A program made the position numbers and the translations under genes. A model generated the notes under the pieces. It was not told where the DNA came from. It searched no databases and worked only from the letters and a program-made list of their open reading frames with translations. Shown piece after piece: positions 1,971 through 42,834 of a stretch of 64,000 nt of DNA (positions are counted from its first letter, which is position 1; each line of letters starts with the position of its first letter). Source of the stretch: an uncultured Bdellovibrionales bacterium. Its GTDB lineage: Bacteria > Patescibacteriota > Minisyncoccia > Moranbacterales > UBA1568. The DNA lies in the NCBI GenBank assembly GCA_964580285.1, contig CAZOKB010000005.1:221-64220 (forward strand), in the 5' to 3' direction.

Positions 1971-1997
1971 ACAGCTAACAGAAATCAATCAACACAA

Positions 1998-2030
1998 AAC
2001 AGAGCAACACGTTGTTGAAGCTGTTTTTTT
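1998..2030 (+). terminator. Rho-independent terminator after yebC
   Basis: Imperfect hairpin aacagagcaaca-cg-ttgttgaagctgtt followed by a T7 run. Confidence 0.5.
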
Positions 2031-2132
2031 ATTTCCACCTGAATACACCTCCCCTCGTTTTTCCCTCTACCTCTCTTTACATAATTCTCCACGACCATTA
2101 CACATTGTGTACAGATAAATCGAGAAAGACAT

Positions 2133-2237
2133 CAGAAAAAAAGAAAATCCGGATGACACGATGATCATCCGGTATACCTGCGAGGCGCTTTGTTCAGGTC
2201 GGCCTCGGAACTTTACCCGCCTTGGGCGGGCCGCTAG
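2133..2237 (-). repeat. Cassette-associated repeat, module type B (copy B1): three hairpins, the last a rho-independent terminator
   Basis: Read on the minus strand: GCCCGCC-caag-GCGGG; GAGGCC-N13-GCGCCTC; CCGGATGA-tcatcgtg-TCATCCGG followed by a U-run. About 90% identical to copy B2 at 5560-5723. Confidence 0.7.
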
Positions 2238-2501
2238 CTATCGTCCGAAGTGATAACCGGCGGTAAAGAGGCTCGCCGCCAGGTCGACTACCAATCCCGT
2301 ATTCGTCGCGTGGTCGATACGGAGCAAGGTATTCAGCATTTCCTGCTGATCTTCCTCGAGCTCGACCCCACAGACCGCGCGAATCGTCGCATCTCCGCCA
2401 AATTCCTTCTCATTTTCTTCAAGCGACGATGTGTTCGTCATGACAAAATGTTTCTTGCCGTTGCGTTCTTCGATCAGAACGAAATAGATATTTTTACCCA
2501 T
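2238..2501 (-). CDS. Hypothetical small protein (cassette ORF, 87 aa)
   Basis: ORF directly followed by repeat B1; no recognisable domain. Confidence 0.4.
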   Translation of the reverse strand: MGKNIYFVLIEERNGKKHFVMTNTSSLEENEKEFGGDATIRAVCGVELEEDQQEMLNTLLRIDHATNTGLVVDLAASLFTAGYHFGR

Positions 2502-2539
2502 GGCACGTCTCCTGGTAAGTGAAAGGGACTACATCTCAA

Positions 2540-2616
2540 TGAGAACTCGATTATCAATCAAGACCTCAATAGAGAGGAGAAAGTGGTCGCTGCCATCTTT
2601 CTCCTAAAAAAATTCA
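2540..2616 (-). repeat. Cassette-associated repeat, module type A (truncated copy A1)
   Basis: Shares the tctcaatgaga...cctcaatagagaggag motif and the GGAGAAAG...CTTTCTCC hairpin with copies A2-A4. Confidence 0.55.
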
Positions 2617-2910
2617 TCAAAGGTTATCACCACGAAGCCTATTTTCATAAGCTTCTTCCTCCTCTTCGTAAGCGGGATCCATTCGATCTCCCCAACCTGC
2701 CCCCGTCGACCAGGTTCCCCTGGATTTGAGATCGATCTTTTTCCTTTTGATGAGAATGAGAAATAGCCGTTTCGTCTCATTATCTGTTATTTCTTGGGCG
2801 GTCTCCTCATTCCTCAGTCGGATACTGCTTACATCGTCCCAGTCATCATAGGTGATAACCACCCTCGTCCCACGAAATGATCCCGTGAAAACACGATAGA
2901 CTGTTGCCAT
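2617..2910 (-). CDS. Hypothetical small protein (cassette ORF, 97 aa)
   Basis: ATG preceded by an AGGAG ribosome-binding site; lies between repeat copies A2 (upstream) and A1 (downstream). Confidence 0.35.
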   Translation of the reverse strand: MATVYRVFTGSFRGTRVVITYDDWDDVSSIRLRNEETAQEITDNETKRLFLILIKRKKIDLKSRGTWSTGAGWGDRMDPAYEEEEEAYENRLRGDNL

Positions 2911-2984
2911 ATCTGCTCTCCTTATTCGAATGCCCTCGAACGATGGGTTGCGAAGAATTTCGCATATTCAATTAAAGAACTTCG

Positions 2985-3148
2985 TCTCGATGAGAGTTCA
3001 ATCATAAAGATTGAAGCCTCAATAGAGAGGAGCAATTGCATTGCAAGTTCTCCGAGAGGCCTTTTGTTCAGGTTGGCCTCGTAACCCGTCTCATACACGC
3101 GGAAGAGTATCGCGAAGGAGTTTCTCATCATCCTTGGGATGCAACTCG
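2985..3148 (-). repeat. Cassette-associated repeat, module type A (copy A2)
   Basis: Conserved box ctccttcgcgatactcttccgcgtgtatgag; hairpin GAGGCC-N13-GGCCTC; hairpin GGAGnAnTTGCAaTGCaannTCTCC; motif tctctattgag...gaactctcatcgaga. Confidence 0.7.
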
Positions 3149-3469
3149 TCAATCGGTGCAGAAATACGCATTGGCGCACTCTTCCGATTCGTCCTGGTCT
3201 GGAGGATCTGCAACGTCAACAATCTTTACGAATTGTCGGCCTTTGCAATCACACCATTCCCTGACGCTCGCTTCGAGTTGTTCGCCCGGTTCGCCATCAA
3301 GAGTGCTCAGAAAGCACTGCTTGAATTCTGCGACCGACGAATAGTAAGCGTCACCCGTACCCACAATGAACGTACTCGTGAAGAAACGTTGGTGACTACC
3401 GTTGTGTATATTGCTACCTTTCGGAAAAGCAACGTAGGTCACAGAAACGTCTCGATAGAGTGAAGTCAT
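3149..3469 (-). CDS. Hypothetical small protein (cassette ORF, ~106 aa)
   Basis: An internal ATG at 3469 with RBS GGAGAAAAG is preferred over the ORF-track start at 3574, which would overlap the upstream gene by 56 bp. Confidence 0.4.
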   Translation of the reverse strand: MTSLYRDVSVTYVAFPKGSNIHNGSHQRFFTSTFIVGTGDAYYSSVAEFKQCFLSTLDGEPGEQLEASVREWCDCKGRQFVKIVDVADPPDQDESEECANAYFCTD

Positions 3470-3518
3470 GCTTTTCTCCTTACCCCTGTACCCGAGGTGC
3501 GGTTGCCAAAATTGGCAA

Positions 3519-3728
3519 TTATTCCTGGTAGAACACGGTGATAGTGCAGTTGACGAACGGATCACCGAGCGCATTAATACCAGCGCACGTTGTCATCATT
3601 CGGCTGATAATAGAGAATGCTGTCACACAGCTTTTCTCCGCAAGCCAGCCGTTCACGTCGCGTTCGAGGGATGCGAACCCTTCGCCTTCATCGGCGGAGG
3701 TGAAGACCTTCACTTTTTCGGTTATCAT
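3519..3728 (-). CDS. Hypothetical small protein (69 aa)
   Basis: GGAGG ribosome-binding site 5 nt upstream of the ATG; forms a two-gene cassette with the 3149..3469 ORF; the spacer between them holds the palindrome TTGCCAAAATTGGCAA. Confidence 0.4.
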   Translation of the reverse strand: MITEKVKVFTSADEGEGFASLERDVNGWLAEKSCVTAFSIISRMMTTCAGINALGDPFVNCTITVFYQE

Positions 3729-3757
3729 GACGACCTCCTATATATTAGAAAGAACAA

Positions 3758-3862
3758 ATCTCTCAGAAACTTCGAGTTATCTCAAAGTTTCAGTAGAGAG
3801 GAGAAATTGCGTTGCAACTTCTCCAAGAGGCCCTTTGTTCGGGTCTGCTTCGGAACCCATGA
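3758..3862 (-). repeat. Cassette-associated repeat, module type A (copy A3, short)
   Basis: Has the same hairpin pair (GAGGCC-type and GGAGAAATTGCGTTGCAACTTCTCC) and the cagtagagaggag motif. Confidence 0.65.
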
Positions 3863-4057
3863 CTAATCCCGTTCGAGAACAACCGTTACGGCGTAGTATA
3901 AGTGATAAGGCTCATCGCTCATCTCTCCAAACGGCGCAATCGAAGTATTAGCACTCTTCACGCGAAACCCTTCGGCAAGCAATGAAGCAATTGCATCTTC
4001 GATCTCGTCTTCCGGAAGAGTGTTCTTCGACTGCCGAATAACAATTCTTGTTTCCAT
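3863..4057 (-). CDS. Hypothetical small protein (cassette ORF, 64 aa)
   Basis: Internal ATG with an AGGAAG ribosome-binding site; the longer ORF-track start would read through the upstream repeat, so it is rejected. Confidence 0.35.
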   Translation of the reverse strand: METRIVIRQSKNTLPEDEIEDAIASLLAEGFRVKSANTSIAPFGEMSDEPYHLYYAVTVVLERD

Positions 4058-4094
4058 GACATCTTCCTTTCTATAGAGTTGTACTCCAATTTCA

Positions 4095-4257
4095 GTGAAA
4101 AAACTCTTTCTCGATGAGAATTCAACTTGAGCTAAATTCTCAATAGAGAGGAGAAGTCGCATTGCAACTTCTCCGATCACCGTGAGGGATTTTCTTCAGG
4201 TTTTCCTCGAAACCCGACTCATCTACACGCGGAAGAGCATCGCGAAGGAGTTTTACA
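4095..4257 (-). repeat. Cassette-associated repeat, module type A (copy A4)
   Basis: Close to full-length match to A2, including a perfect 8-bp hairpin GGAGAAGT-tgcaatgcg-ACTTCTCC. Confidence 0.7.
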
Positions 4258-4674
4258 TCATCCTTTGGACGGATGGTTTTCGATGCCTCCAAATGAGAGT
4301 CGGCCCTCACGAACCATCCTTTCGAGGAGGGCGGGGGGATTGGTTAGGCACGAAGTCGTGTGCAAGGAGCCATTGTCCGGCGCACCGAATATCGTATATT
4401 TTCCATTTTCCAATTCCGATACGAAGAAATGCCAATCACCACCATCTTCTTCCCGGCAACTCGGAAAATGTACGAGTTGGTTCTCCTCTAGGAACGCAAT
4501 GAGATGATAAGCATCCATCATCGCCTGCGGAATAACCATCTTCATCATCCGTGCCATACTTCTCTCCTGTCCGGAAACCGCCGGGAATCGGTGGGTAAAA
4601 ATACCCGTGAATTGTGGAGGTGCTTGTCCGATGAGCTTTGCTTGTTTTCTCATCCTGACACATGAGTATAGCAA
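4258..4674 (-). CDS. Hypothetical protein (first ORF of the minus-strand array, up to 138 aa)
   Basis: ORF immediately downstream of a TTGACA-N17-TATACT promoter on the minus strand; start codon uncertain. Confidence 0.35.
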   Translation of the reverse strand: MLYSCVRMRKQAKLIGQAPPQFTGIFTHRFPAVSGQERSMARMMKMVIPQAMMDAYHLIAFLEENQLVHFPSCREEDGGDWHFFVSELENGKYTIFGAPDNGSLHTTSCLTNPPALLERMVREGRLSFGGIENHPSKG

Positions 4675-4710
4675 ATTATTACAATTCTGTCAATACTTAT
4701 TGCTTTATAT

Positions 4711-4739
4711 TTGACACTTTTTTAATATTTGTATATAAT
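4711..4739 (+). promoter_or_regulatory. Consensus sigma70-type promoter (TTGACA-N17-TATAAT) for the trmB-like gene; a divergent TTGACA-N17-TATACT promoter on the minus strand drives the cassette array
   Basis: Exact -35 and -10 hexamers with 17-bp spacing, read directly from the sequence. Confidence 0.6.
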
Positions 4740-4766
4740 ACGTATACACATTAACCGACTTTTACC

Positions 4767-18131: not shown

Positions 18132-18647
18132 TTGGGTAAGGGCAATAATCATATGCAAACGGCACAGGAAACCATCAAGGCATTAGCGGAAACATTGGCC
18201 GAAAAGCTAGGCTTTCAGGCAGAGGTTACAGTGTCTCAGGATCCTCTGGAGGAGGGAGCGCTGCGAGTGTCGTTCCATGTGGCTGAAGACCAGCATTTTT
18301 TAATTGGTCAACGAGGGGCTAATCTGTCGGCTCTCCAGCATCTTTTCCGAGCTCTGTATCGAAAACAAGGAGGGGATGCTTCGGGGATCGCTATTGATAT
18401 CAATGATTACGTTAAGGGGAAGGAAAGTTTGCTTTTGCAGGATGTGGATAAAGCGGTCGAGGAAGCTATAGACCAGAACGCCTCCGTTGCACTCCGTCCC
18501 ATGCTTTCTTTTGAGCGAAAACTTGTACATCGGTACCTCTCGGCTCATCCAAAAGTGCGCACAGAAAGTGCTGGAACTGGTGAGCAGCGCAAGATTTTTA
18601 TTCGGCCGAAGATTTCTCTGGATGGCGTGCCAGAAACGATCGAATAG
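18132..18647 (+). CDS. jag: Jag/KhpB-like R3H-domain RNA-binding protein
   Basis: 171 aa; KH-like plus R3H region; position after yidC. Confidence 0.7.
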   Translation: MGKGNNHMQTAQETIKALAETLAEKLGFQAEVTVSQDPLEEGALRVSFHVAEDQHFLIGQRGANLSALQHLFRALYRKQGGDASGIAIDINDYVKGKESLLLQDVDKAVEEAIDQNASVALRPMLSFERKLVHRYLSAHPKVRTESAGTGEQRKIFIRPKISLDGVPETIE

Positions 18648-18661
18648 GGTATCCTAGAGGC

Positions 18662-20110
18662 ATGGCCATAGCACGCAAACTTGCTTACAATGTGATTTTC
18701 AATTCTGCGCTGAAAGCGACATCAACTGTGGTGCTGTCGCTTTTTTTGGTGCGTCTTATCACAGGGTATTTGGGGCAGGATGGCTTTGGAAAATACGCTA
18801 CGGTGTTAGCTTTTTTCTCGTTCTTTTCTGCGCTGAGTGATCTCGGGCTCGGCCCCGTTACTGCTCGAGAAATAGCTAAGGAAGGGGCTGATGAACGGAA
18901 GATTTTAGGAAATGTTGTAGGACTGCGACTTGTTAGTTCGGCAGTGCTTATCACCCTGGCTCCTCTTGTGGTGCTCTTTTTTGATTATCCGGTAGAGGTG
19001 AAGTGGGGCATTATCGTTGTGGCCGTAGCGTCCCTTTTTAGTTCGCTCTCTTTGGTGATGAATGGGGTGTTCCAGAAACGCATTGCCATGGATCGGGTAG
19101 CAATGGTGGAGTTTGTAGGCAAACTTATTCAGGTAGGCCTGATTGCGGGTATCGTTAAATTCAATCTCGGCTTTCTGCCGATCGTTTTTTCGGTGCTCAT
19201 TGCCCTCTCCTTCAATATCGTGACAGTGTACGTGATTAGCCGGAATTTTGTCCGTTTCTCGCTCCGTTTTGACAGGGCTTTTTGGAAAATGTTCTTAAAG
19301 GAGTCTCTCCCTATGGGAGCCACGGCTATTATTACTTTTGCTTATTTTAAGACTGACACTATCCTCCTCTCGCTTATACAGTCGAGCTCAGATGTGGGTG
19401 TCTACAATGTAGCCTATAAGATTATTGAGAATCTGGTCTTTTTCCCAGCGATGCTTGCGGGGCTCATTTTGCCGTTATTATCTCGGTATTTTACATCGAA
19501 TAAAGAGAAGTTCCTGGAAATTGCTCAGAAAACTTTCAAGGTGTTTATTATCATTGTGCTCCCCATCGTCTTAGGGACAGTCTTTTTGGCTCAAGACATT
19601 GTTCGGATCATTAGCGGCCCAGAGTTTGATGCTTCGGCCCCGGTGCTCCGTATTCTAGCGATTTCATTGGCGTGCATCTTCTTTGGGCATTATTTCAATA
19701 TGATTCTGGTAGTTGGGCATATGCAGAAAAAACTTATGCAGGTGCTTTTGTTTGTTGCCGCGTTTAATATTACCCTGAACCTTTTTCTAGTCGAACGCTA
19801 TTCGTATATGGGGGCTGCTACGGCTGCTGCCCTAACGGAATTCATGGTAGTAGTACTGACGAGCTCTCTGGCATACAAAAAACTTCGCTTTGTACCGAGA
19901 TTTTCAGGTATTGGTAAAGTGTTCTTTTCAGCCGCTGGTATGGCGGGGGCACTCTACTTGCTTGCGGCATCGCCCTTTATTGTGGCGGGGAGCATCTCCA
20001 TGGTTATCTATTTCGGACTTCTTTGGGTGACACGAGCAGTTTCTTCAGAAGAGGTCATGAGCCTCTTCTCTAAAGAGAATGAAGAATCTCTTGAACCGCC
20101 GGTGGTTTGA
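18662..20110 (+). CDS. Polysaccharide biosynthesis flippase (MOP/Wzx family)
   Basis: 482 aa, about 12-14 TM helices. Confidence 0.7.
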   Translation: MAIARKLAYNVIFNSALKATSTVVLSLFLVRLITGYLGQDGFGKYATVLAFFSFFSALSDLGLGPVTAREIAKEGADERKILGNVVGLRLVSSAVLITLAPLVVLFFDYPVEVKWGIIVVAVASLFSSLSLVMNGVFQKRIAMDRVAMVEFVGKLIQVGLIAGIVKFNLGFLPIVFSVLIALSFNIVTVYVISRNFVRFSLRFDRAFWKMFLKESLPMGATAIITFAYFKTDTILLSLIQSSSDVGVYNVAYKIIENLVFFPAMLAGLILPLLSRYFTSNKEKFLEIAQKTFKVFIIIVLPIVLGTVFLAQDIVRIISGPEFDASAPVLRILAISLACIFFGHYFNMILVVGHMQKKLMQVLLFVAAFNITLNLFLVERYSYMGAATAAALTEFMVVVLTSSLAYKKLRFVPRFSGIGKVFFSAAGMAGALYLLAASPFIVAGSISMVIYFGLLWVTRAVSSEEVMSLFSKENEESLEPPVV

Positions 20111-20143
20111 TGCTGAATAACAAGAAGGATCTTTAGGGGCTGA

Positions 20144-20989
20144 ATGATGTCTGAAAAAATTGCCGTTATTCTGGTGAATTATGAAAGCGGAGAAGACCTC
20201 TTGGGAGCGCTCCGTTCGCTTATGGTAGCTCGCCGAGCACCTGATGTCTATATTGTTATTGATAACGCTTCGAAAGATCAATCCTGGAAACAAGCTCAAC
20301 GGGTTTTTCCGCACATCAAAAGCAGAGGTAATGCTCAAAATATTGGTTTCGCTCGAGCTGTAAATCAAGGTCTCAAAGAAGCCCAGCAACAAGGCGCAAC
20401 CCATGTATGGTTGTTTAACCCAGATGCGCGTGCTTACGGAGATACCCTTGAGCAGCTCATAGCTGCTTCGCGACGCATGCCGCGTGCGCTTCTGTCCCCG
20501 GTCATTTTTAATCAACGGAAAGAGTTTTGGTTTGCTGGCGGTGAAATAGATTGGTTGCGCATGCGCGCGGTGCATACGCGGACCGTTCCTTCTGAACAGA
20601 GACAGCAGGGATTCCTTACAGGCTGCGCCCTTTTTATGCCGCTCTCAGTACGAGAAAGCATCGGAGGGCTTGATGAGCGCTTCTTTCTCTATTATGAAGA
20701 TGTAGAGTATAGCTTCCGTGCTCAGCAAGCAGGGTTTGACCTTCGGGTGGTGCCTGATGCGCGGGTAGACCATGCTGAAGTGAGCCAGGCGAACCCAGAA
20801 AAGACCTACTTTTTGGTCTATTCCGGGCTCCTCTTCTTTTTGGGGCAGGCCAAAAGTGTTACAAGGCTGTATTTTTCTATGTATGTTACAATACGGAGAC
20901 TAAAAAACTGGGTGGATTGCTTGCTTTGGGGAGGAAAGAAAGCCGTGTCCGTTCGACAGGCCTATGGGGATTTTTTCCGTAAAAAATGA
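20144..20989 (+). CDS. Family 2 glycosyltransferase
   Basis: 281 aa; GT-A fold motifs (VILVNY, DNAS, DxD-like). Confidence 0.8.
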   Translation: MMSEKIAVILVNYESGEDLLGALRSLMVARRAPDVYIVIDNASKDQSWKQAQRVFPHIKSRGNAQNIGFARAVNQGLKEAQQQGATHVWLFNPDARAYGDTLEQLIAASRRMPRALLSPVIFNQRKEFWFAGGEIDWLRMRAVHTRTVPSEQRQQGFLTGCALFMPLSVRESIGGLDERFFLYYEDVEYSFRAQQAGFDLRVVPDARVDHAEVSQANPEKTYFLVYSGLLFFLGQAKSVTRLYFSMYVTIRRLKNWVDCLLWGGKKAVSVRQAYGDFFRKK

Positions 20990-21782
20990 GTATCCAGATT
21001 TTTCGCTTATCACGGTGAATTTTCAGAGCGCGGTATCGCTCGGAAGAATGTTACGAAGCCTCCCTGCCGATTTTTTGGCAAAAGGAGAGGTGATTATTGT
21101 GAACAATGATCCGAACGAAAGCGCTTTATTGTCCAGGATGTTTGCTCAAGAATCCAAAGTGCGGATTATTGAGATGCGCCGCAATGTTGGTTTTGCTCAG
21201 GCCTGTAATCAAGGAGCGCAACAGGCTCGGAGTGAGAGGTTGATTTTTTTGAATCCCGATATCGTATATGCTGTGGGCTCTCTTGAAGCCTGGTTGGCTG
21301 TTCTCGATCAGTATCCATTGTCGATTGTAGCGCCTCTGTTGCTTAAAAATGGCAAAATAGAACCTTGGAGCAGTGGCGGTATCATTCATCCGGTCCGGAT
21401 ACTTCTTCAAAATCTCTTTCCTGTGCCAGTGTTTTGGTCTTGGCATGATCGCAAGCGCCTGGGCTGGGTAAGCGGTGCTGCCCTGGCTCTTCGAAAGGGA
21501 GATTTTCAAAAACTTCACGGGTTTGATGAGGCATATTTTCTGTATTATGAAGATGCGGATCTGTGCCGGAGGGCACAGCAGAGAGGTATAGCCATTCGTC
21601 AGGTGAGGCATGTTAGGTTAACGCATCGTGGAGGAATGAGCCATTCATGTGCATCACAGCAAAAACAAGCGTATTTTCGCTCCCAAGACCTTTATATAAG
21701 GCAATACTACGGATGGGCTTGGGCTTTCCTCTTTCGTTGCTTAAGAAGATTACATCCGGCCTATTGGTTTGATATATGCTAA
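20964..21782 (+). CDS. Family 2 glycosyltransferase
   Basis: 272 aa; motifs IIVNNDP and YYEDADL. Confidence 0.8.
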   Translation: MGIFSVKNEYPDFSLITVNFQSAVSLGRMLRSLPADFLAKGEVIIVNNDPNESALLSRMFAQESKVRIIEMRRNVGFAQACNQGAQQARSERLIFLNPDIVYAVGSLEAWLAVLDQYPLSIVAPLLLKNGKIEPWSSGGIIHPVRILLQNLFPVPVFWSWHDRKRLGWVSGAALALRKGDFQKLHGFDEAYFLYYEDADLCRRAQQRGIAIRQVRHVRLTHRGGMSHSCASQQKQAYFRSQDLYIRQYYGWAWAFLFRCLRRLHPAYWFDIC

Positions 21783-23038
21783 CCTTTCTGCGTTTTTTTC
21801 TTTTTTTGTTGCCATTCCAGTTTGCTTTGTCACCAACAGAGAATATTGACCTGCCTATTGTCCGAGTACTTGCAGTGGGTATTATTCTTGTTTGGATGGC
21901 CAAAGGGCTTTTCAATCGTCAACTTTCCCTTGGGTGGAATGTACAGACAGGCGCTCTCCTTTCCTTTTGGTTTGTGTTGGGTCTGTCGATGAGCGTAGCC
22001 GAAGAAGTTTCGTGGGCTTTGAGAAAAATGCTCTTCCTCATGTCGTTTTTCCCGCTTTACTTTGTGTGGAGAGAGGAAGTGGGCCACCATCAAGCACGAG
22101 CGTTTTTTTTAGTAGAAGCCTTTGTTTTTGGGGCAGCCCTTTCGGCTGCGATAGGGATACTTCAGGTAGTATTACAATTTTTTATACCGGTAGAAACTCT
22201 TTTTACGTGGTGGACGAGTCATATCTTGCCCTTTTTTCTGGGGCATGGTTTTGCGGGAGCGGTAGCTGAGTACCCGAGTCTTCTCGTGAATCTTTCAGGA
22301 AGAACGGTTATGCGGGCTTCAGCGTTGTTTCCTGACCCACATATGCACGCTTTTTATTTAGGGCTGGCTTTACCCTTAGCCTTCTTTTTTGTCTGGCAAA
22401 AACGGACGTGGTTGTGGTGGAGCCTCTCTCTCTGCATTCTCATAGCCGATCTGCTCACTTTTTCACGCGGGGCCTATTTGGGTTTTGGGCTAGCCTTGAT
22501 AGGGGGAGTCTTTCTTTTTGGATCAAAGCTTTCTTTAGGAACTAAAAAAGCTGTCCTGTTAGGGATAGGCGGCGTTACCCTGCTTCTTTGGGTGCCCAAT
22601 CCTATTGGAGAGCGTTTTTGGTCAGGGTTTTCAGCGGAAGACGGATCAGTAGCGGCGCGCCTTGCTCTTTATCAGGAGGCCGGACAGCATATCGGTGAGC
22701 GTCCATGGTTGGGTGTGGGGATTGGTAATTATCCTCTGGCCGTGAAGCCAACGGCTCTCCCGCGGGAACCTATTTATGTACATGATCTTTGGCTAGATAT
22801 TGCTGTGGAGACGGGCATATTGGGGCTCATTTGTTTTGGAGCCTTCTTTTTTTCAGCGCTCAGTTCTGTGTATAGAGCCTGGAAAACAACCGGCCACGCC
22901 TTTTATTTGGCTCTTTTTGGATCGCTTGTGCTCTTTTTCGGGCATTCGCTTGTGGAAACCCCCCTTTTTTCTGTCCAGGTTTTTCCGGCATGGCTGTTTC
23001 TCGTCGCTTTGAGTCGCCTCCCGTATGCAAATGAGTAA
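21776..23038 (+). CDS. O-antigen ligase/polymerase family membrane protein (Wzy_C)
   Basis: 420 aa, polytopic; conserved central loop with Arg and His residues. Confidence 0.65.
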   Translation: MLTFLRFFLFLLPFQFALSPTENIDLPIVRVLAVGIILVWMAKGLFNRQLSLGWNVQTGALLSFWFVLGLSMSVAEEVSWALRKMLFLMSFFPLYFVWREEVGHHQARAFFLVEAFVFGAALSAAIGILQVVLQFFIPVETLFTWWTSHILPFFLGHGFAGAVAEYPSLLVNLSGRTVMRASALFPDPHMHAFYLGLALPLAFFFVWQKRTWLWWSLSLCILIADLLTFSRGAYLGFGLALIGGVFLFGSKLSLGTKKAVLLGIGGVTLLLWVPNPIGERFWSGFSAEDGSVAARLALYQEAGQHIGERPWLGVGIGNYPLAVKPTALPREPIYVHDLWLDIAVETGILGLICFGAFFFSALSSVYRAWKTTGHAFYLALFGSLVLFFGHSLVETPLFSVQVFPAWLFLVALSRLPYANE

Positions 23039-24221
23039 AACAACAGGACTTTTAATACTCTGCGTCTGGCTTCTTCCGGTAGCCTCTATGAAATTGTTAC
23101 CCTTTGGGTGGCCGCTGTATCCTGTAGAAATAGTTCTTTTGGCTGCTCTCCCCTTTCTCTCCTCACGGGAAAGAGGAAAGTTTTTCTTGCAGTCTTCTTT
23201 CGCTCGCAGCGTGAGCGTGTGTGCCGGACTTTTTTTGTTGGGAAACTGCTTGTCTTATTATACTCATCCAAATGGATGGACAGGCCTTGGACAGATAAAA
23301 AGCTTCTTCTTCTTTCCGCTCTTATTCTGGGTCATGGCCCTTGAGGAACTAGAAAGTGTGCAGAAAACAGAAAGAGTGCTTTGGCATATGCGTGCCATGA
23401 TGGCGGTTTCAGGGGCAGCCGCGTTGTTGTGGGGCGTGTGGCACGGATTAACCTATGATCATCGACTCAGTGCCTGGTTTGACTCTCCGAATCTGCTCGC
23501 GATATTTCTCCTTCCAGGAGCAGTACTCTGGTTGGCGCAGGTGGCTACGGCAAAGCGTTTTATATGGACCGAAGTCCTAGCATGGATAGCGATAACCGGA
23601 GCTCTTTTTCTTACACGTTCCTATGGGGCTATCGGCGCCTTTCTGTTGGCGGGAGGTTTTTTTCTGTGGAGAGAACGAACTTTCTCAATATCGCGTGTGC
23701 CCTGGAGGGTCATGGGGCTGGTACTCGCCCTTTTCATTATATTTTTGAGTTTTGAAACAGGAACAGAGAAATGGAGCGCTCTAGCGGAAGGAAACATTCG
23801 CTCATCGTTTGAGTCGCGTATCATGATCTGGCGCTCGGCTGTGAAAATGGTAGCAGAAAATGTGTGGACAGGTATTGGCCCGGGGCGCTTTCAGACGGTG
23901 TATTTAGAATATCAGTCGTTTTACCCGCCCTATCTGGAGTGGGCAGTGCCACACCCGCACAATCTTTTCCTAGCTTTTTGGTTGGCATCTGGAGTCCTCG
24001 GTGCAGGCGCTTTTCTTTGGCTTGTTAGCTTACTCTTTGTTTTTTTCCGAACCAGCCCCTCTTGTAAAGAAAAATCGCTTTCTTTAGCGATTCTCCTCTC
24101 TTTTTTTGTGGTAGGCTTGGTAGACGTTCCTTATTTTCGATCAGAATTCAGCTATCTTTTCTGGTTTACTCTTGCCTGGATAACAGCGTTGGCTGCTCGA
24201 GATCAAGCGGCACGGACCTAA
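23025..24221 (+). CDS. O-antigen ligase-like membrane protein (second paralog)
   Basis: 398 aa, polytopic; Wzy_C-like. Confidence 0.6.
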   Translation: MQMSKTTGLLILCVWLLPVASMKLLPFGWPLYPVEIVLLAALPFLSSRERGKFFLQSSFARSVSVCAGLFLLGNCLSYYTHPNGWTGLGQIKSFFFFPLLFWVMALEELESVQKTERVLWHMRAMMAVSGAAALLWGVWHGLTYDHRLSAWFDSPNLLAIFLLPGAVLWLAQVATAKRFIWTEVLAWIAITGALFLTRSYGAIGAFLLAGGFFLWRERTFSISRVPWRVMGLVLALFIIFLSFETGTEKWSALAEGNIRSSFESRIMIWRSAVKMVAENVWTGIGPGRFQTVYLEYQSFYPPYLEWAVPHPHNLFLAFWLASGVLGAGAFLWLVSLLFVFFRTSPSCKEKSLSLAILLSFFVVGLVDVPYFRSEFSYLFWFTLAWITALAARDQAART

Positions 24222-33964: not shown

Positions 33965-34048
33965 GCCCAGGTGGCGGAATTGGTATACGCGCTAGCTTGA
34001 GGTGCTAGTTCTCGCAAGGGATTGGAGGTTCGAGTCCTCTCCTGGGCA
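33965..34048 (+). tRNA. tRNA-Leu (anticodon GAG), type II with a long variable arm
   Basis: Manual cloverleaf fold: acceptor GCCCAGG/CCTGGGC, anticodon loop TTGAGGT. Confidence 0.8.
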
Positions 34049-34122
34049 CAAAAAGCGGAAAGCTGGCGGCGAGCCGGCTTTCTTCTTTTGGAGACTTCCT
34101 TTACAATAAGACGGTATCAGAA

Positions 34123-34196
34123 GGGCAATTAGCTCAGTTGGTTAGAGCATCTCGTTTACACCGAGAGGGTCAGAGGTTCGAGTCCTCTATTGCCCA
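34123..34196 (+). tRNA. tRNA-Val (anticodon TAC)
   Basis: Cloverleaf fold; anticodon loop TTTACAC; T-loop TTCGAGT. Confidence 0.8.
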
Positions 34197-34340
34197 CAAA
34201 CCTAAGGTTTGCAAGAATCAGTTTCTTTGATATTGTTGACTTTGTGGTTGCAAAAGCCGGAGTAGCTTCTGCCCATGGCGGACCCGCCTCGGGCGGGCAG
34301 TGGTTCCTCGTAGTTTAGATCAAGAGGCATTATCAAATAT

Positions 34341-34412
34341 GCCGGAGTAGCTCAGTGGTAGAGCGAAGGACTGAAAATCCTTGCGTCGGCAGTTCAATTC
34401 TGCCCTCCGGCA
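34341..34412 (+). tRNA. tRNA-Phe (anticodon GAA)
   Basis: Cloverleaf fold; anticodon loop CTGAAAA. Confidence 0.8.
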
Positions 34413-34460
34413 CAGGCGTGAAAAGAAGCAAGAGAAAAGCGTGAGAGATGGAATGGCTTT

Positions 34461-34533
34461 GGGACTGTAGCTCAGCGGTTAGAGCAGGCGGCTCATAACC
34501 GCTTGGTCGATGGTTCGAATCCATCCAGTCCCA
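34461..34533 (+). tRNA. tRNA with CAT anticodon (elongator Met, or Ile2 after lysidinylation by TilS)
   Basis: Cloverleaf fold; G1:C72 pair, so not an initiator tRNA; anticodon loop CTCATAA. Confidence 0.7.
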
Positions 34534-34590
34534 CTAGGGTTGAAAGACATGTATTATTGCTTTCGTTGAGATCTTTCTCAAGAGAGTGCC

Positions 34591-34662
34591 GCGGGTATCG
34601 TATAGCGGCTATTATGTGACCTTGCCAAGGTCAAGATACGGGTTCGACTCCCGTTACCCGCT
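34591..34662 (+). tRNA. tRNA-Gly (anticodon GCC)
   Basis: Acceptor GCGGGTA/TACCCGC; anticodon loop TTGCCAA. Confidence 0.75.
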
Positions 34663-34807
34663 CAGCTAAAAATGAGGCTCTCCAGAGCCTTGTTTTTTAT
34701 TACCCCTAAAGACAGTCGAACTAGGGGTGGACAAAATTTATAAAATATGCTATTATGTATCGTCGTCAAGCTTGGCGACGCGTGTCCTTTTGAAAGGAGT
34801 TATCAAA

Positions 34808-36298: not shown

Positions 36299-36369
36299 GG
36301 TCCGATGGCCGAGCGGTTAGGCACAGGTCTGCAAAACCTTTTACAGCGGTTCAACTCCGCTTCGGACCT
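36299..36369 (+). tRNA. tRNA-Cys (anticodon GCA)
   Basis: Acceptor GGTCCGA/TCGGACC; anticodon loop CTGCAAA; D-arm is irregular; preceded by TTGACT-N17-TACACT (36254-36282). Confidence 0.6.
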
Positions 36370-36381
36370 CAGGTTGTATAT

Positions 36382-36466
36382 GCCGTGGTGGCGGAATTGG
36401 TAGACGCAGAGGACTTAAAATCCTCCGACTGAATAAGTCGTGCGAGTTCGATTCTCGCCCGCGGCA
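36382..36466 (+). tRNA. tRNA-Leu (anticodon TAA), type II
   Basis: Acceptor GCCGTGG/CCGCGGC; anticodon loop CTTAAAA; followed by terminator aaaagaccgg...ccggtcttttt (36469-36501). Confidence 0.8.
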
Positions 36467-36483
36467 CATAAAAAAGACCGGAA

Positions 36484-37071
36484 TTAACGCCCGGTCTTTT
36501 TAATAGTTTCAAGGAGTTTTGGAATCTTGAGAAAGTCTTGCTTGAGGGTTTCTCGCATACTGCCATTATAGAGCGCTGCGGCTGGGTGATACAGAGCAAA
36601 AAAAATGCGTGGACCCATATCAGGAAAGGTTCTCCGAAAAGCCTGTCCATGCACTTCGGAAATACGTTTGCCTGGGAGGAAGTTTTCCATGGCATGTCTG
36701 CCAAGGGTAACAATAAGGAGTGGATCGATAAGATTAATTTGATCCACTAACCATTCGCGGCAAGCAACTTTCTCTTCCGGAAGCGGGTCACGATTTTCGG
36801 GTGGGCGATACTTTACAACATTCGTAATGTAGATATCTTCACGCTTGAGGTGTATCGAAGCGAGCATCTCATTCAAAAATTTTCCAGCAGCTCCAACAAA
36901 AGGAATACCCTGGAGATCCTCATTCTTTCCGGGGGCTTCGCCAATAAAGAGAATATCGGCATCTGCAGAGCCATCACCAGGCACGGCGTGTGTGGCTGTG
37001 TGACGCAAAACGCACGCACAAGTAAGGATATGACGAGCATTGATAGTGTCCAGTTCTTTTGTCTTTTCCAT
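36484..37071 (-). CDS. Family 4 uracil-DNA glycosylase
   Basis: 195 aa; GEAPG and Cys-cluster motifs. Confidence 0.8.
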   Translation of the reverse strand: MEKTKELDTINARHILTCACVLRHTATHAVPGDGSADADILFIGEAPGKNEDLQGIPFVGAAGKFLNEMLASIHLKREDIYITNVVKYRPPENRDPLPEEKVACREWLVDQINLIDPLLIVTLGRHAMENFLPGKRISEVHGQAFRRTFPDMGPRIFFALYHPAAALYNGSMRETLKQDFLKIPKLLETIKKTGR

Positions 37072-37124: not shown

Positions 37125-38084
37125 TTAGACTATTTGCCAGCCGCACTCTGTTTCGATGATTCTTCCGGGAACCTCAAAACCGCTTGCAAGCTTGTGTCCT
37201 CCCCCACCAAGTTGTTTGGCGATAGCCGAAACATCGATACCGTGGTGTTCAAGTGAGCGGAGACTCCCTCGGACGAGCCCTCCTGCTCGTTCAGAAAGTA
37301 CCAAAACATATTTTGCTTCAGGCACAGCGCTGAGTATAGTAGTGACTTGATAAATATCATCGATAACCGCCGCGCACTCGGTCACGTCTTGTTCGGTAAT
37401 GACCGTGGTGAGTAGGCCGCTTTCGGGGTGGAGTCGGGCTCGCTCAAAAGCCTTTCCCCAAAGGTGAAGGGCGGCCACTTTCTTCTTAGAAAAAATTAGT
37501 TCAGCAATTTTAGCTGCCGGAGCACCGAGACGCATGAGCTCTGAGGCGATACTCATAACCTGGGCCGTTACGTTGGCGTGCTGGAAGGCACCAGTATCAA
37601 ACATGAGGCCGAGGAGGAGTGCTGTTGCAATGGGCTTAGTGATAAGCGCTTTATTTGACTGTAAAAAAAGATAAATGAGTTCTGAACTGGACGAGTATTC
37701 TGAATCGATAGCGACAATATCTCCGGAGAGCTGGATATCCGGGTGATGGTCAATAAGGACAGTAACGGTATCTGGTGTGAACCGGTATACGATGGTCTGA
37801 AATCCTCTATCGACACTATCGCAAGCGATGACAGCATCGTAGGTAGATAGATCAAGTGAATCTGGATGTTGAAATTCAACTTCGAAAAGAGCGTGCAGAT
37901 TTTCAGGGAACGGATCAAGACAACCGATATCAACAGTCTTGCCTTGATGTTCAAGATAATATTTGAGAGCTACGTTCGCGCCTACGGTATCTGGATCTGG
38001 TCTTGAATGGGCAAAAAGCAGGATGCGTGAAGCATTCTGTATAACGTAGCGGAGAGTTTTCCATTCTTTTTGGAAATCGCGCAT
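37125..38084 (-). CDS. nrnA: DHH/DHHA1 phosphoesterase (NrnA-like nanoRNase/pAp phosphatase)
   Basis: 319 aa; DHH motif; C-terminal GGGH (DHHA1) motif. Confidence 0.75.
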   Translation of the reverse strand: MRDFQKEWKTLRYVIQNASRILLFAHSRPDPDTVGANVALKYYLEHQGKTVDIGCLDPFPENLHALFEVEFQHPDSLDLSTYDAVIACDSVDRGFQTIVYRFTPDTVTVLIDHHPDIQLSGDIVAIDSEYSSSSELIYLFLQSNKALITKPIATALLLGLMFDTGAFQHANVTAQVMSIASELMRLGAPAAKIAELIFSKKKVAALHLWGKAFERARLHPESGLLTTVITEQDVTECAAVIDDIYQVTTILSAVPEAKYVLVLSERAGGLVRGSLRSLEHHGIDVSAIAKQLGGGGHKLASGFEVPGRIIETECGWQIV

Positions 38085-38127: not shown

Positions 38128-38505
38128 TTAGATAGACGGGTCATCGACTGAAGATTGAGAGGATCCGGTTTCTTGTTTAATTTCTCGGAGAAGTTTTTCA
38201 ACAACATCGGCTGATTGTTCGGTATGGTCAGCTCCAATGAGGATGCGGGGGCGAATCTTCATAGAAAGTTGTGCATGAAGGGCTTGCTGAAGTCGTCCTT
38301 GTTCATGACGGAGGGTTGCGATAGCGTAGCCTTCTTCTTGTTCCGGAAACACTGAAACGGATATACGAGTGTACCGGAGATCAGGCGTGGTGTCAACCTT
38401 AGCCACAGTAACAATAACCCCCTGCTTGAGAGAGATTTCGCGTTCGAGTAATTGACCAAAAATGCCTCGAACAAGCTCGTTCATTTTTTCGATGCGGAGA
38501 GACAT
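38128..38505 (-). CDS. rbfA: Ribosome-binding factor A
   Basis: 125 aa; RbfA KH-like fold signature. Confidence 0.85.
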   Translation of the reverse strand: MSLRIEKMNELVRGIFGQLLEREISLKQGVIVTVAKVDTTPDLRYTRISVSVFPEQEEGYAIATLRHEQGRLQQALHAQLSMKIRPRILIGADHTEQSADVVEKLLREIKQETGSSQSSVDDPSI

Positions 38506-38530: not shown

Positions 38531-38602
38531 GTGCCCCCAGTATGAATCGAACATACATCTCTCCCTTAGGACGGGATAGCTCTATCCATTGAGCTATGGA
38601 GG
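38531..38602 (-). tRNA. tRNA-Arg (anticodon CCT)
   Basis: Cloverleaf fold on the minus strand; anticodon loop GTCCTAA. Confidence 0.75.
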
Positions 38603-38640
38603 CGATTCGGGTGGGGGGAGTACAAGATTATTGTTTAGGG

Positions 38641-38713
38641 TGGACCATGCCGGATTCGAACCGGCCACCCCTTCCATGCCATGGAAGTGCTCTACCAAAT
38701 GAGCTAATGGCCC
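38641..38713 (-). tRNA. tRNA-Ala (anticodon GGC), G3:U70 identity pair present
   Basis: Acceptor GGGCCAT/ATGGTCC with a G3-U70 wobble; anticodon loop ATGGCAT. Confidence 0.75.
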
Positions 38714-38759
38714 AAATACCAGTATAACAGTTATCAATATGACAAATCTTTAACGAAGA

Positions 38760-40640
38760 GTCAATGGTTGAGATTATTCCCCTCGTAGGCCATTTTTGGT
38801 GAGAGGATGTAGTATATTGACATATTAGTATATATATTGCTAAATATATTTTAAGAAGATATTTTTAAATGAGGTGTATTTACATTGAGTATGTTCCACG
38901 TGGAACGCAACTAGACGCTCATTTTTTGCTTAAGAAATCCATGCCAGTTAGAAGAGACTTATTTTTTCTATTTTGCTCCACGTGGAATACTTTTACTTGT
39001 GTAGTTAGAATTTTAAAAAAATATACGTATTATTTTTTCCACGTGGAACATTTTAAATTTACAGCTTTTGAAATGTATAATATATTTTTCCACGTGGAAC
39101 AAATATTATTGAGGTTAATTATTGTAAATACACTCTTCCCTAGATACAAATTGCTTATATAAGCTAAAAAATGAAAAAAATATTCTGGTAAGAATCTAGG
39201 AAGCTCTGTTTCACGTGGAACAAATGCTTTTTTATAGAGTTAACTTCTAATTATTAATAATTGTTTTAAAATGTTCCACGTGGAATAATATATAAAACAT
39301 TAAAAAAATCTTTTTTAACAGTCAGTTTGTATTGATAGGTATGCCTCATTATATTGTTCCACGTGGAACTATACAATAATAAAAACAATAGTAAGATGTA
39401 AGGGTATTTTTTTGGATTTAAAAAAATTTTATATCCAAGATAAAGTAATTGTTTTAACTGTTTCACGTGAAACATTATCTTTTAGTGAGAATAATTTAAG
39501 GCAATTTTTATGTTTAAAGAGTTTTGTTTCACGTGAAACAGAGTTTCCTAGATTCTCACCAGAATAATTTATACAGATTAATGCTTTATTTAAAGCAATA
39601 ATTGTTATTTTAAATTAAAACGATATTTGTTCCACGTGGAAAATTGTCTATAATTTCTTCTATCCGCATAGTGCTCTATAATTGAAAAATAGAAATATTT
39701 AAAAAAACAAGAAAATATTTATTATTGTTCCACGTAGAACGATTATTGAAAATAAAATCAAGAATCATATGTTCCACGTGGAATTATGGAAAGAATTATT
39801 TGTAATAAGTCCATCGTTTTTGTTCCACATGAAGTAAATGCTGCTTTTTATTTTTTTATGAATAAGCTTGTTCCACGTGGAATTATAAGGAATGATTTTT
39901 TTTATAGAGTATTTTTAGAGTTTTTTTGTGATTGTTCCACGTGGAACAAGGTTTCCTAGATTCTCACCAGAATAATTTATACAGATTAATGCTTTATTTA
40001 AAGAAATAATTGTTATTTTAAATTAAAACGATATTTGTTCCACGTGGAAAATTTTGAGAGAAGGTTTTAATGTTTTAAATGAATATAATAATTTTTGAGT
40101 ATATAAAAAAACTTCGTGTTTTTTTGTTCCACATGGAACAATACAGTTTTTGTTATTGACATAATTTATATATTATTGCTTAATATAAAATATTATGTAT
40201 ACATCGTTTTTTGGAGGGTATTATGGAAATATGAAATGGATTTTATTCCCAAAAAAGTGAGTATTGTTGCATTACTATATTGGTACCATGCGAGCATGTA
40301 TGGTATGAATATTAATTTGCCATAGAGGTCAATAATTTTGGTTTGTTTACTCATCTAAAGCTTGTTTTTTTGATGAATTATTCAATATCTACCCCATTCT
40401 TTATGGGAGACAGAGAAATTCTTATGCTTGTGATAGTTTTGTGATTTTTCTGCAGACTTAATCTAGGAAGCTAATTATTTTTTCGTATTTCGTGGTGCAA
40501 AAATTTCAAGAACAAGAGGAGATCTTGTTCGCTGCAGCAGGGGGGTCTTTCTTGATGAAATAATGGAGATGAGAGCGTATCGTTTTTAAATAAAGACTAT
40601 ATTAAAGAAGTTGATGATTTTCTCTGCGCATATGGTATAA
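38760..40640. other. AT-rich (~25% GC) non-coding island
   Basis: Composition drops sharply relative to the ~48% GC flanks; the ORFs predicted here are low-complexity and judged spurious. Confidence 0.8.
38902..40140. repeat. parS: Array of 17 parS-like 16-bp palindromes (ParB-binding centromere sites)
   Basis: Exact canonical TGTTTCACGTGAAACA at 39459-39474 and 39525-39540. Perfect-palindrome variant TGTTCCACGTGGAACA at 39933-39948. Mixed-half-site TGTTTCACGTGGAACA at 39207-39222. One-mismatch sites at 38902, 39035, 39086 and 40125. Two-mismatch sites at 38974, 39272, 39355, 39628, 39770, 39869 and 40036. Weaker sites at 39726 and 39821. Spacing is irregular, 42-121 bp. Confidence 0.85.
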
Positions 40641-40659
40641 TATTCTCAAAGAAAAACCT

Positions 40660-41643
40660 GTGAAATATATTTTAGGATTTCCTCAAAAAACTCTTTTCGT
40701 TTTCTTTGCGCTTTTGGTTTTTTCCATTGGTTTTTTTGTGTCTGCTAATTCAGTAACAAGCAATCGATCTATTTTTTTGGATGCCGATCAGGACGGCTTG
40801 AGTGATGATGAAGAAAAGGTTTTTGGAACGGATCCTTTGAAAAAAGATACGGACGGAGATAGTTATAGTGATGGAGTGGAAGTACAGAGTGGTTATGATC
40901 CATTGAAACCAGCTCCAGGTGATAAGCTGACGAATGAGAATGATCTCGGTAAGGGAGGGTATGATTCATCCGCGGATATGGCCACGCCTAATCTTACAGA
41001 AACAGCTTCGAATGAAGTGGCTAATATATTGTCACAGGTTTCGAAGGATGATCCTTCGGTGAGTATGAATGATCTGAATGCTTCTATTGAAACGCTTATG
41101 AAGCAATCGGATGTAGAGGTGGTGATACCGGAAGTTGATATTAATACCATTAAGATCAAGAAAATAAAGTGTAAGGCTTCTGAAGGGGATGATAAGTGTG
41201 AGACTAAGAAGAAAGATGCGACTTTGGAATACTTAACCGTCCTGGCCTATTTAGTAGCTAATAATTCTCCAGTTCCGCTTAAAACGAATGCGAATCTCGA
41301 AAGTGTGTCCACCTCTTTTTTAAATGATGCCACGCTTGCGCTTTCAACAGGAAATTTCGCTCTCTTAAAAGATATGTCTACTCGAGGAGAAACTTTCTTG
41401 TCGGCTATCAAGGATGTAGAGGTGCCAGAAAATATGTTAGAGATCCATATCAAGGCTTTGAAATTAGGTCTTTTTGCGCAGAATTTGGGAAAAGAATTTG
41501 AAAAGAAAAATAATGATCCTATTGCCCAAATAGCCCTGCTTTCCCAAGTACAGGGAACGCTTGGAGTGGTGGCTGACCTTTCGAATGATATGATGAATGA
41601 GCTTGCGAAATTAGGAATTGATACTGTGCCAGTGAATCTCTAG
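40660..41643 (+). CDS. Secreted protein with thrombospondin-type-3-like Ca-binding repeats (DxDxDG)
   Basis: 327 aa; N-terminal TM/signal; DADQDGLSDDEE and DTDGDSYSDG repeats. Confidence 0.5.
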   Translation: MKYILGFPQKTLFVFFALLVFSIGFFVSANSVTSNRSIFLDADQDGLSDDEEKVFGTDPLKKDTDGDSYSDGVEVQSGYDPLKPAPGDKLTNENDLGKGGYDSSADMATPNLTETASNEVANILSQVSKDDPSVSMNDLNASIETLMKQSDVEVVIPEVDINTIKIKKIKCKASEGDDKCETKKKDATLEYLTVLAYLVANNSPVPLKTNANLESVSTSFLNDATLALSTGNFALLKDMSTRGETFLSAIKDVEVPENMLEIHIKALKLGLFAQNLGKEFEKKNNDPIAQIALLSQVQGTLGVVADLSNDMMNELAKLGIDTVPVNL

Positions 41644-42757: not shown

Positions 42758-42834
42758 TGGTGGACAATACTGGATTCGAACCAGTGACCTTCACAATGTC
42801 AATGTGACGCTCTAACCAACTGAGCTAATTGTCC
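42758..42834 (-). tRNA. tRNA-Val (anticodon GAC), CCA encoded
   Basis: Minus-strand cloverleaf; anticodon loop TTGACAT; downstream hairpin aaacacc...gggtgtttt at 42727-42757. Confidence 0.8.

Follow-up and report, generated by a model that had tools for sequence, protein, structure and literature searches.

Multiple binding sites for ParB-family proteins are known from plasmids, chromosomes and engineered DNA, and these systems frame the array of 17 closely packed parS sites that we report here from the window, a stretch of 64,000 nucleotides (contig CAZOKB010000005.1 of assembly GCA_964580285.1, positions 221 to 64,220). On the F plasmid, the centromere sopC consists of 12 exact 43-bp tandem units beside sopAB and has its own motif. 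Like the array in the window, it holds multiple 16-bp inverted repeats within a short stretch (~0.5–1 kb), where they nucleate a ParB-family protein. Ordinary chromosomal parS sets (10 sites each in Bacillus subtilis, Pseudomonas aeruginosa and Corynebacterium glutamicum, ~7 in Caulobacter) use the same 16-bp palindrome as the window, are proximal to the origin and, as there, tolerate variation at position 5 and in the outermost bases (PMC7022226, PMC4368675), but they are spread over tens to hundreds of kilobases and often lie in genes, whereas all sites in the window form one 1.25-kb non-coding block. Synthetic substrates with 7 to 39 parS copies likewise place many parS in a short stretch (PMC8299390); they are engineered, whereas the array is natural and conserved.

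Myxococcus xanthus resembles the window in having many parS of nearly the same consensus (TGTTCCACGTGGAACG; PMC7022226 Table 1) in a single stretch 30–35 kb from oriC. Its 22 parS are packed into 3.05 kb (7.2 per kb) at a distance of ~35 kb from oriC and ~4 kb upstream of parA (PMC3899335), and another study counted 24 (PMC3778016). ParB of M. xanthus shifts a 3.12-kb fragment with the parS cluster in an electrophoretic mobility shift assay (PMC3899335), thus binding the cluster in vitro, and each origin is marked by one ParB focus. The original prediction had taken chromosomal parS to be normally few and scattered, which overlooks the 22 sites within 3 kb in M. xanthus (PMC3899335); because that cluster had already revealed dense chromosomal parS blocks, the array described here does not overturn current understanding. 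It is nevertheless about twice as dense as the Myxococcus cluster (13.6 versus 7.2 per kb), and the settings differ, with a 9-Mb genome and a cluster fragment of ~65% GC in M. xanthus versus an AT-rich, spacer-poor island in the window, from a small-genome host of the candidate phyla radiation (CPR). Both have at least 10 parS in one block within a few kilobases near oriC, but the Myxococcus cluster lies a few kilobases upstream of parAB and no parAB was found at window positions 1–64000.

We conclude that the island that carries the array is very probably the chromosomal centromere of a Patescibacteria (Moranbacteria-type) genome, a non-coding region with 17 closely packed parS on which the host ParB would load. 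Scanning the whole window against TGTTYCACGTGRAACA with up to three mismatches, and taking the 16-bp inverted repeat tGTTNCACGTGAAACa as the criterion for chromosomal parS, we obtained 17 matches (0–3 mismatches) at 38892–40140, compared with 0.59 expected for the entire window, which bears out the number of sites and the single non-coding, origin-proximal island of the original prediction. None of 100 shuffled sequences attained the window total of 19 matches. The only two matches outside the array (10080 and 46306) have three mismatches each, which is at chance level, and no further site with two or fewer mismatches was present in the 64 kb, so that the palindrome is not a ubiquitous repeat on this scale. 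With 17 sites in 1,249 bp, the array reaches a density of 13.6 per kb, far above the usual, as had been proposed. Taken together, the sites match the chromosomal parS consensus, occupy an origin-proximal domain, are conserved amid diverged DNA and are rare elsewhere across the 64 kb, all of which are marks of chromosomal parS.

The array begins with TGTTCCACGTGGAACG (site 1, 38892–38907, one mismatch), 10 bp earlier than the predicted start at 38902, followed by TGCTCCACGTGGAATA (site 2, 38974–38989, two mismatches; T at 38976 in other strains), two copies of TTTTCCACGTGGAACA (site 3, 39035–39050, and site 4, 39086–39101; one mismatch each) and TGTTTCACGTGGAACA (site 5, 39207–39222), a hybrid of both half-site types with no mismatch to the degenerate consensus. 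One mismatch is found in each of TGTTCCACGTGGAATA (site 6, 39272–39287) and TGTTCCACGTGGAACT (site 7, 39355–39370), after which come the two exact copies of canonical TGTTTCACGTGAAACA at the positions originally given, 39459–39474 (site 8; strain polymorphism at positions 5 and 15) and 39525–39540 (site 9; strain polymorphism at positions 6 and 12). Further right, TGTTCCACGTGGAAAA occurs twice with one mismatch (site 10, 39628–39643; site 16, 40036–40051), as does TGTTCCACGTGGAATT with two (site 12, 39770–39785; site 14, 39869–39884), and TGTTCCACGTAGAACG lies at 39726–39741 (site 11, two mismatches). The most divergent member, TGTTCCACATGAAGTA (site 13, 39821–39836, three mismatches), retains a single intact half-site and is probably a decayed site. 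The remaining two are TGTTCCACGTGGAACA (site 15, 39933–39948) and TGTTCCACATGGAACA (site 17, 40125–40140, one mismatch).

Four of these sites agree fully with the degenerate consensus, and 10 of the 17 contain the 12-mer core TTCCACGTGGAA. Conservation per column was 0.82–1.00 at positions 1–14 and looser at positions 15–16. The perfect palindrome TGTTCCACGTGGAACA, which had been called the dominant variant, is indeed the column consensus of the 17 sites, but only one exact copy exists, at 39933. Of 30 GTTYCAC half-sites across the window, 22 fall in the island, as do 14 of the 16 copies of CACGTG. As a separate observation, the two copies of CACGTG outside the island (27007 and 60237) compare with ~7 expected from dinucleotide shuffles, a mild avoidance that may stem from a restriction system or from selection against ParB nucleating at stray sites.

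Spacing from start to start is irregular at 44–121 bp, a slight correction of the 42–121 bp stated previously, with no helical phasing (Rayleigh p = 0.47) and no tandem period detected in the array by Tandem Repeats Finder. These features do not support the plasmid-style iteron array that the original prediction envisaged. Unlike sopC, the array combines irregular spacing and unrelated spacers with the chromosomal parS motif and a chromosomal context (dnaA, dnaN, gyrA, rplS, tRNAs and ftsH are all in the window), and no par operon adjoins it. An iteron-type plasmid centromere was ruled out on the same grounds, namely no fixed unit length, the chromosomal context and no par operon.

The AT-rich non-coding island that holds the array extends from tRNA-Ala to a TSP3-repeat protein gene (38715–40659), and its final 519 bp are without parS. 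Its low GC content (0.22–0.33 over its whole length, 0.22–0.29 in the 1.25 kb that carry the sites and 0.21 in the spacers, versus 0.45–0.50 in the flanks) and lack of a credible open reading frame (ORF) agree with the original description; the longest ORF encodes 97 amino acids, with a low-complexity, AT-rich translation. No Rfam family matched the island, by which an RNA gene, riboswitch or small RNA was ruled out, and promoter-like sites within it were not in excess over shuffles, by which a promoter cluster was ruled out. The location had likewise been given correctly, with dnaA 22.3 kb from the array and tRNA-Ala and tRNA-Arg adjoining the island.

A comparison of synteny, which had been proposed along with the original prediction, revealed the island at the same place in three relatives (L012, L173 and L010). 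Relatives were gathered by scanning a genome collection with the DHH protein encoded near the island, which yielded six at 80–83% amino-acid identity. On a 95.6-kb contig labelled Moraniibacteriota (L012), gene order is kept from RNR to S1 and the flanks align with the window at 67–82% nucleotide identity, while the region between tRNA-Ala and the TSP3 gene holds 15 sites in 0.9 kb whose spacers cannot be aligned with those of the window. L173, a further relative that came from a scan of metagenomes, has the same synteny as the window and 12 sites up to the contig end, and L010 has at least eight, also at a contig end; array densities in the relatives were 16–19 per kb. Between L173 and L010, which are 96% identical over the island, none of 192 site positions differed compared with 21 of 481 spacer positions (Fisher p = 0.001), and the sites are thus under purifying selection in this sister lineage. 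Between L012 and L173, alignment is essentially limited to the 16-mers ±2 bp, plus a few pieces of 65–74 bp.

We also gathered nine contigs from other samples, using the rbfA protein encoded next to the island. Among same-species assemblies, which are 98–99% identical to the window, two span the island (L001 and L002) and three run into it (L004, L005 and L006). Since it is present in independent assemblies (at least five, together with four relatives), the array is not an assembly artefact. Its length does vary, however: L001 and L002 have 11 sites and are without the 408 bp between two 122-bp direct repeats, whereas L005 supports the longer form, through the unique part to 39815. The direct repeats (39524–39645 and 39932–40053, both on the forward strand, 96% identical and each with two parS) mark a 408-bp segmental duplication in the window, and a 64-bp module on the reverse strand (39161–39224), an 83% copy of 39523–39586, indicates that the array has grown by inverted duplication too. 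In L012 (7262–8149) and L173 (12247–12973), an internal tandem duplication of ~525 bp in each covers seven to eight sites. Considered with the constancy of the 16-mers, the duplications in the window, L012 and L173 indicate that the arrays turn over by duplication of segments, with the motif conserved throughout. Several contigs (L173, L010, L004 and L006) stop inside the array, which suggests that short reads struggle with it and that its copy number is possibly under-assembled; the true number of sites may exceed the assembled one. Arrays of this kind break short-read contigs, and their copy number in metagenome-assembled genomes may be underestimated.

Dense parS blocks are a recurrent natural architecture tied to ParABS and the origin neighborhood, and the array in the window stands at the dense end of their range. 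A scan of metagenomes for three parS cores 42–72 bp apart identified at least 120 loci (L140–L259). Among them, parA lay beside the cluster in at least 53 and parB in at least 37; at least 13 had 10 or more sites per 1.5 kb, at GC contents of 0.28–0.73. Loci with 10–12 sites that directly adjoin parA include L150, L230 and L184; other clusters adjoin dnaA–dnaN (L147, L163 and L254) or gyrA (L145, L174, L185, L249 and L255). Helical phasing was seen in some of the other arrays, for example L147 and L184, and in none of the arrays examined did spacing fall below ~39 bp.

Several individual loci deserve mention. The L147 array (contig Ga0180436_10000184, 1044–2027) consists of 15 perfect copies of TGTTTCACGTGAAACA in a non-coding stretch of ~1 kb immediately upstream of dnaA (3104–4489) and dnaN, with helically phased spacing (Rayleigh R = 0.78); its genome has 35% GC and encodes a homologue of the TSP3 protein of the window. 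In a set of contigs of low GC content (0.25–0.37; L145, L174, L185, L249, L255, L254, L142 and L158), the cluster lies beside gyrA, and the encoded GyrA is 44–49% identical to that of the window. The L146 cluster comprises 29 sites over 6.2 kb, and a single 40.7-kb contig carries both L219 and L168.

Viral sequences presented a different picture. A scan of IMG/VR listed at least 120 loci (L020–L139), and the clusters among those listed were of two to five sites only, with a ParB match (tblastn) on only 2 of the 120 loci listed. Most of the listed matches were contigs of ~11–12.5 kb with two to five chromosomal-type parS, often near both contig ends. The one contig annotated (L024) is a phi29-like podovirus, encoding PolB, a Gp16 ATPase, a connector and Phi29_MCP, with parS at 254–307 and 11477–11530, near both ends. 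Phage phi29 uses host Spo0J, and parS-bearing phi29-like contigs are in line with this.

As for the protein that would bind the array, ParB is very likely present in the host genome because a 2025 survey records chromosomal parB for 81 of the 84 Moranbacterales species whose genomes are near-complete (96%; PMC12704722 Dataset S1), an argument made at the level of the lineage; the gene is found in 96–100% of species in other Patescibacteria orders and in 98.7% in Bdellovibrionales (PMC12704722 Dataset S1). TGTTCCACGTGGAACA is identical to parS2/parS3 of P. aeruginosa, a parS in experimental use (PMC4368675), as well as to the parS of Pseudomonas putida, and is one terminal base off the consensus bound by M. 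xanthus ParB (PMC3899335, PMC3778016); identical 16-mers have been bound by Pseudomonas and Myxococcus ParB in published work. The original prediction suggested that the two half-site types could mean two ParB specificities or a relaxed one. Two proteins need not be invoked: position 5 of the chromosomal parS consensus is N, and ParB proteins of several species bind both GTTCCAC and GTTTCAC (PMC7022226); strains also vary at positions 5 and 12, where four of eight distinct within-species site changes fall (C/T and G/A between strains). Because the same ParB proteins bind both half-sites and the half-sites vary among strains, the mixture is consistent with a single ParB that shows the usual leeway at position 5.

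Under the centromere interpretation, and by analogy with established ParB biology, canonical ParB dimers of the host would bind each 16-bp palindrome, take up CTP and close to form clamps, which would then slide away into adjoining DNA. The large number of loading sites in 1.25 kb would yield a high loading rate and hence a compact, ParB-rich partition complex by the origin, on which ParA (if the genome has one) and/or SMC would act to separate sister origins. The size of the array would shift by segmental duplication and deletion, with selection keeping the 16-mers as the spacers drift. In magnetic-tweezers experiments in vitro, the force of condensation grew as the parS copies increased from 7 to 13 and 26, an effect that the authors credit to a higher loading rate of ParB clamps (PMC8299390). 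Reasons for having many sites might be that tiny cells have few ParB molecules, that a large array withstands the decay of single sites or that SMC is loaded there. The notions of a 'ParB sink' or 'super-centromere' put forward with the original prediction are speculation.

Several observations weigh against assigning a centromere role to the island. Neither parA nor parB was found by motif scan in the window (source contig, 65,555 bp), with its 38.9 kb of sequence left of the array and 23.9 kb right of it; tblastn of the window with approximate Spo0J and Soj queries gave only matches with E > 1, and Pfam scans of 50 window ORFs revealed no family of ParB or ParA type. Several model species need no more than one parS to segregate their chromosomes (PMC7022226), which makes any benefit of having 17 hypothetical. 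Within the species, moreover, substitutions were not depleted at the sites and, if anything, were enriched (in L002, 5 of 160 site positions versus 7 of 605 spacer positions), and three of the eight distinct within-species site changes fall at conserved positions. As a separate observation on gene order, window positions 17051–24221 contain rnpA–yidC–jag (17051–18647) and then polysaccharide and O-antigen-ligase-like genes, with no rsmG–parA–parB block as in many Firmicutes, and parAB, if present, would therefore have been relocated elsewhere.

If the centromere interpretation holds, the island marks the likely centromere of one CPR lineage and predicts a central role for ParB in segregation, and we know of no experimental work on chromosome segregation in CPR/Patescibacteria. 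Our literature search found no publication that links parS or ParB to Patescibacteria and, as far as that search reveals, this is the first dense parS array found for CPR. It is also a natural, evolutionarily maintained counterpart of the synthetic 7× to 39× parS substrates used in ParB biochemistry, and effects of site number and spacing on clamp loading become testable with real sequences. A broader proposal, which we offer tentatively and regard as rather doubtful, is that non-coding parS islands with 10–20 sites per kb are a widespread and hitherto undescribed type of centromere in uncultivated bacteria, several CPR lineages among them (for example this genus and L147), that they expand and contract by segmental duplication, and that they are possibly tuned to few ParB molecules in ultra-small cells, perhaps without an adjacent ParA or any ParA.

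Other explanations of the island would give the sites a different reader or a different history. The palindromes could be read by a ParB paralogue, either an orphan or one similar to Noc, or by some unrelated protein that recognizes CACGTG; the island might then serve, for example, in nucleoid occlusion, in tethering to the membrane or in silencing the tRNA/rbfA and TSP3 genes that diverge from it. Such a reader would suit a window without ParB and an array placed between two divergent transcription units, and orphan ParB-like proteins are common and widespread (PMC12704722). The motif nonetheless makes this unlikely: the whole 16-mer is conserved, including the outer TGTT/AACA, and the site center is CACGTG, as in canonical parS, not the CCCGGG of Noc-binding sites, while arrays of the same motif adjoin parA and parB in the many metagenome loci counted above. 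Known Noc sites, furthermore, are scattered and avoid an origin-proximal centromere role. A mobile ancestry can be imagined too, in which the centromere of an old plasmid or phage became integrated beside tRNA genes, which are common integration sites, and has remained there as a relic or a decoy that draws host ParB. The AT richness of the island relative to the genome would be explained in this way, and short clusters of chromosomal-type parS do exist on mobile elements such as phi29-like phage contigs. We nevertheless consider it very unlikely, as the clusters on mobile elements have no more than five sites among the loci listed, no integrase, replication or par genes flank the island, and the island and both its flanks are syntenic in relatives (flanking genes at 67–82% nucleotide identity), with sites that are under purifying selection in the sister lineage.

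Replication initiation was weighed in the same way. If the palindromes were DnaA boxes of a variant form (TGTTCCACA resembles TTWTNCACA) and the AT-rich DNA around them served for unwinding, the island could be part of the replication origin or a second one; it is AT-rich and non-coding, has repeated boxes and contains CCACA at two sites (39821 and 40125). However, GC skew changes sign at ~14–15 kb, 24 kb away from the island at 39 kb, no TTWTNCACA box is present in the island, and all consensus DnaA boxes lie around dnaA and dnaN, in clusters at 14622–15157 and 16584–16737. The palindromic 16-mer is, moreover, parS. An origin function therefore seems extremely improbable, and identity of the island with oriC was ruled out by GC skew and DnaA-box positions. 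Equally improbable is a selfish or neutral repeat (MITE-like, CRISPR-like or TIGR-like) or an assembly artefact with no centromere role. The internal duplications, the differences in copy number between assemblies and the contigs that stop inside the array might be taken as signs of either, but neither the spacing nor the spacers are regular, a tandem period is missing, the repeat does not occur elsewhere in the 64 kb, and at least five independent assemblies and four relatives carry the array. TIGR arrays consist of dual 10-nt repeats, yield 36-nt RNAs and lie next to a tas gene (PMC12045711), whereas no cas or tas genes lie near the island, where the neighbors are tRNAs, rbfA and a gene for a secreted protein. 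A TIGR-like or CRISPR-like array was ruled out on this anatomy, that is, irregular spacing and no cas or tas neighbor.

The array is placed between two divergent transcription units that point away from it. The left boundary of the island is formed by tRNA-Ala(GGC) (38638–38714, reverse strand), which adjoins the island together with tRNA-Arg(CCT) (38531–38603, reverse strand); beyond these lie rbfA (38128–38505), the DHH/NrnA-like gene (37125–38084) and a UDG gene (36484–37071), all on the reverse strand and all conserved syntenic anchors. On the right, the boundary is the TSP3-repeat protein gene (40660–41643, forward strand), whose product has an N-terminal hydrophobic segment. The origin region (13764–16737) comprises dnaN (13764–14894, reverse strand), dnaA (15149–16591, reverse strand) and the two DnaA-box clusters; the placement of these boxes and of the GC-skew switch puts the origin at ~15–17 kb and the island 22 kb into the right replichore.

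The identity of the host was reconsidered in light of its neighbors and gene content. The six relatives found with the DHH protein carry conflicting NCBI labels (Candidatus Moraniibacteriota, Patescibacteria group and 'uncultured Bdellovibrionales'), and in the NCBI taxonomy Moraniibacteriota falls within the Parcubacteria group. Three of the related metagenome-assembled genomes, L010, L014 and L015, are labelled 'uncultured Bdellovibrionales' at NCBI, with close relatives labelled Patescibacteria or Moraniibacteriota. The window encodes a G5–DPBB RpfB-like protein and a 3D-domain protein, has the gene order rnpA–yidC–jag and yields a weak T4SS_pilin match. This gene content better fits a monoderm CPR bacterium and suggests that the Bdellovibrionales label is wrong.

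Two further features of the window were recorded. A 2.8-kb region of ordinary composition (1971–4766; GC ~0.47) lacks ORFs longer than 141 amino acids on both strands, and Rfam yielded no match at E values up to 0.1. Around the island, ten tRNA genes lie within 9 kb (including 33965–34663, 36299–36467 and 42758–42834), among them a five-gene cluster for Leu, Val, Phe, Met and Gly.

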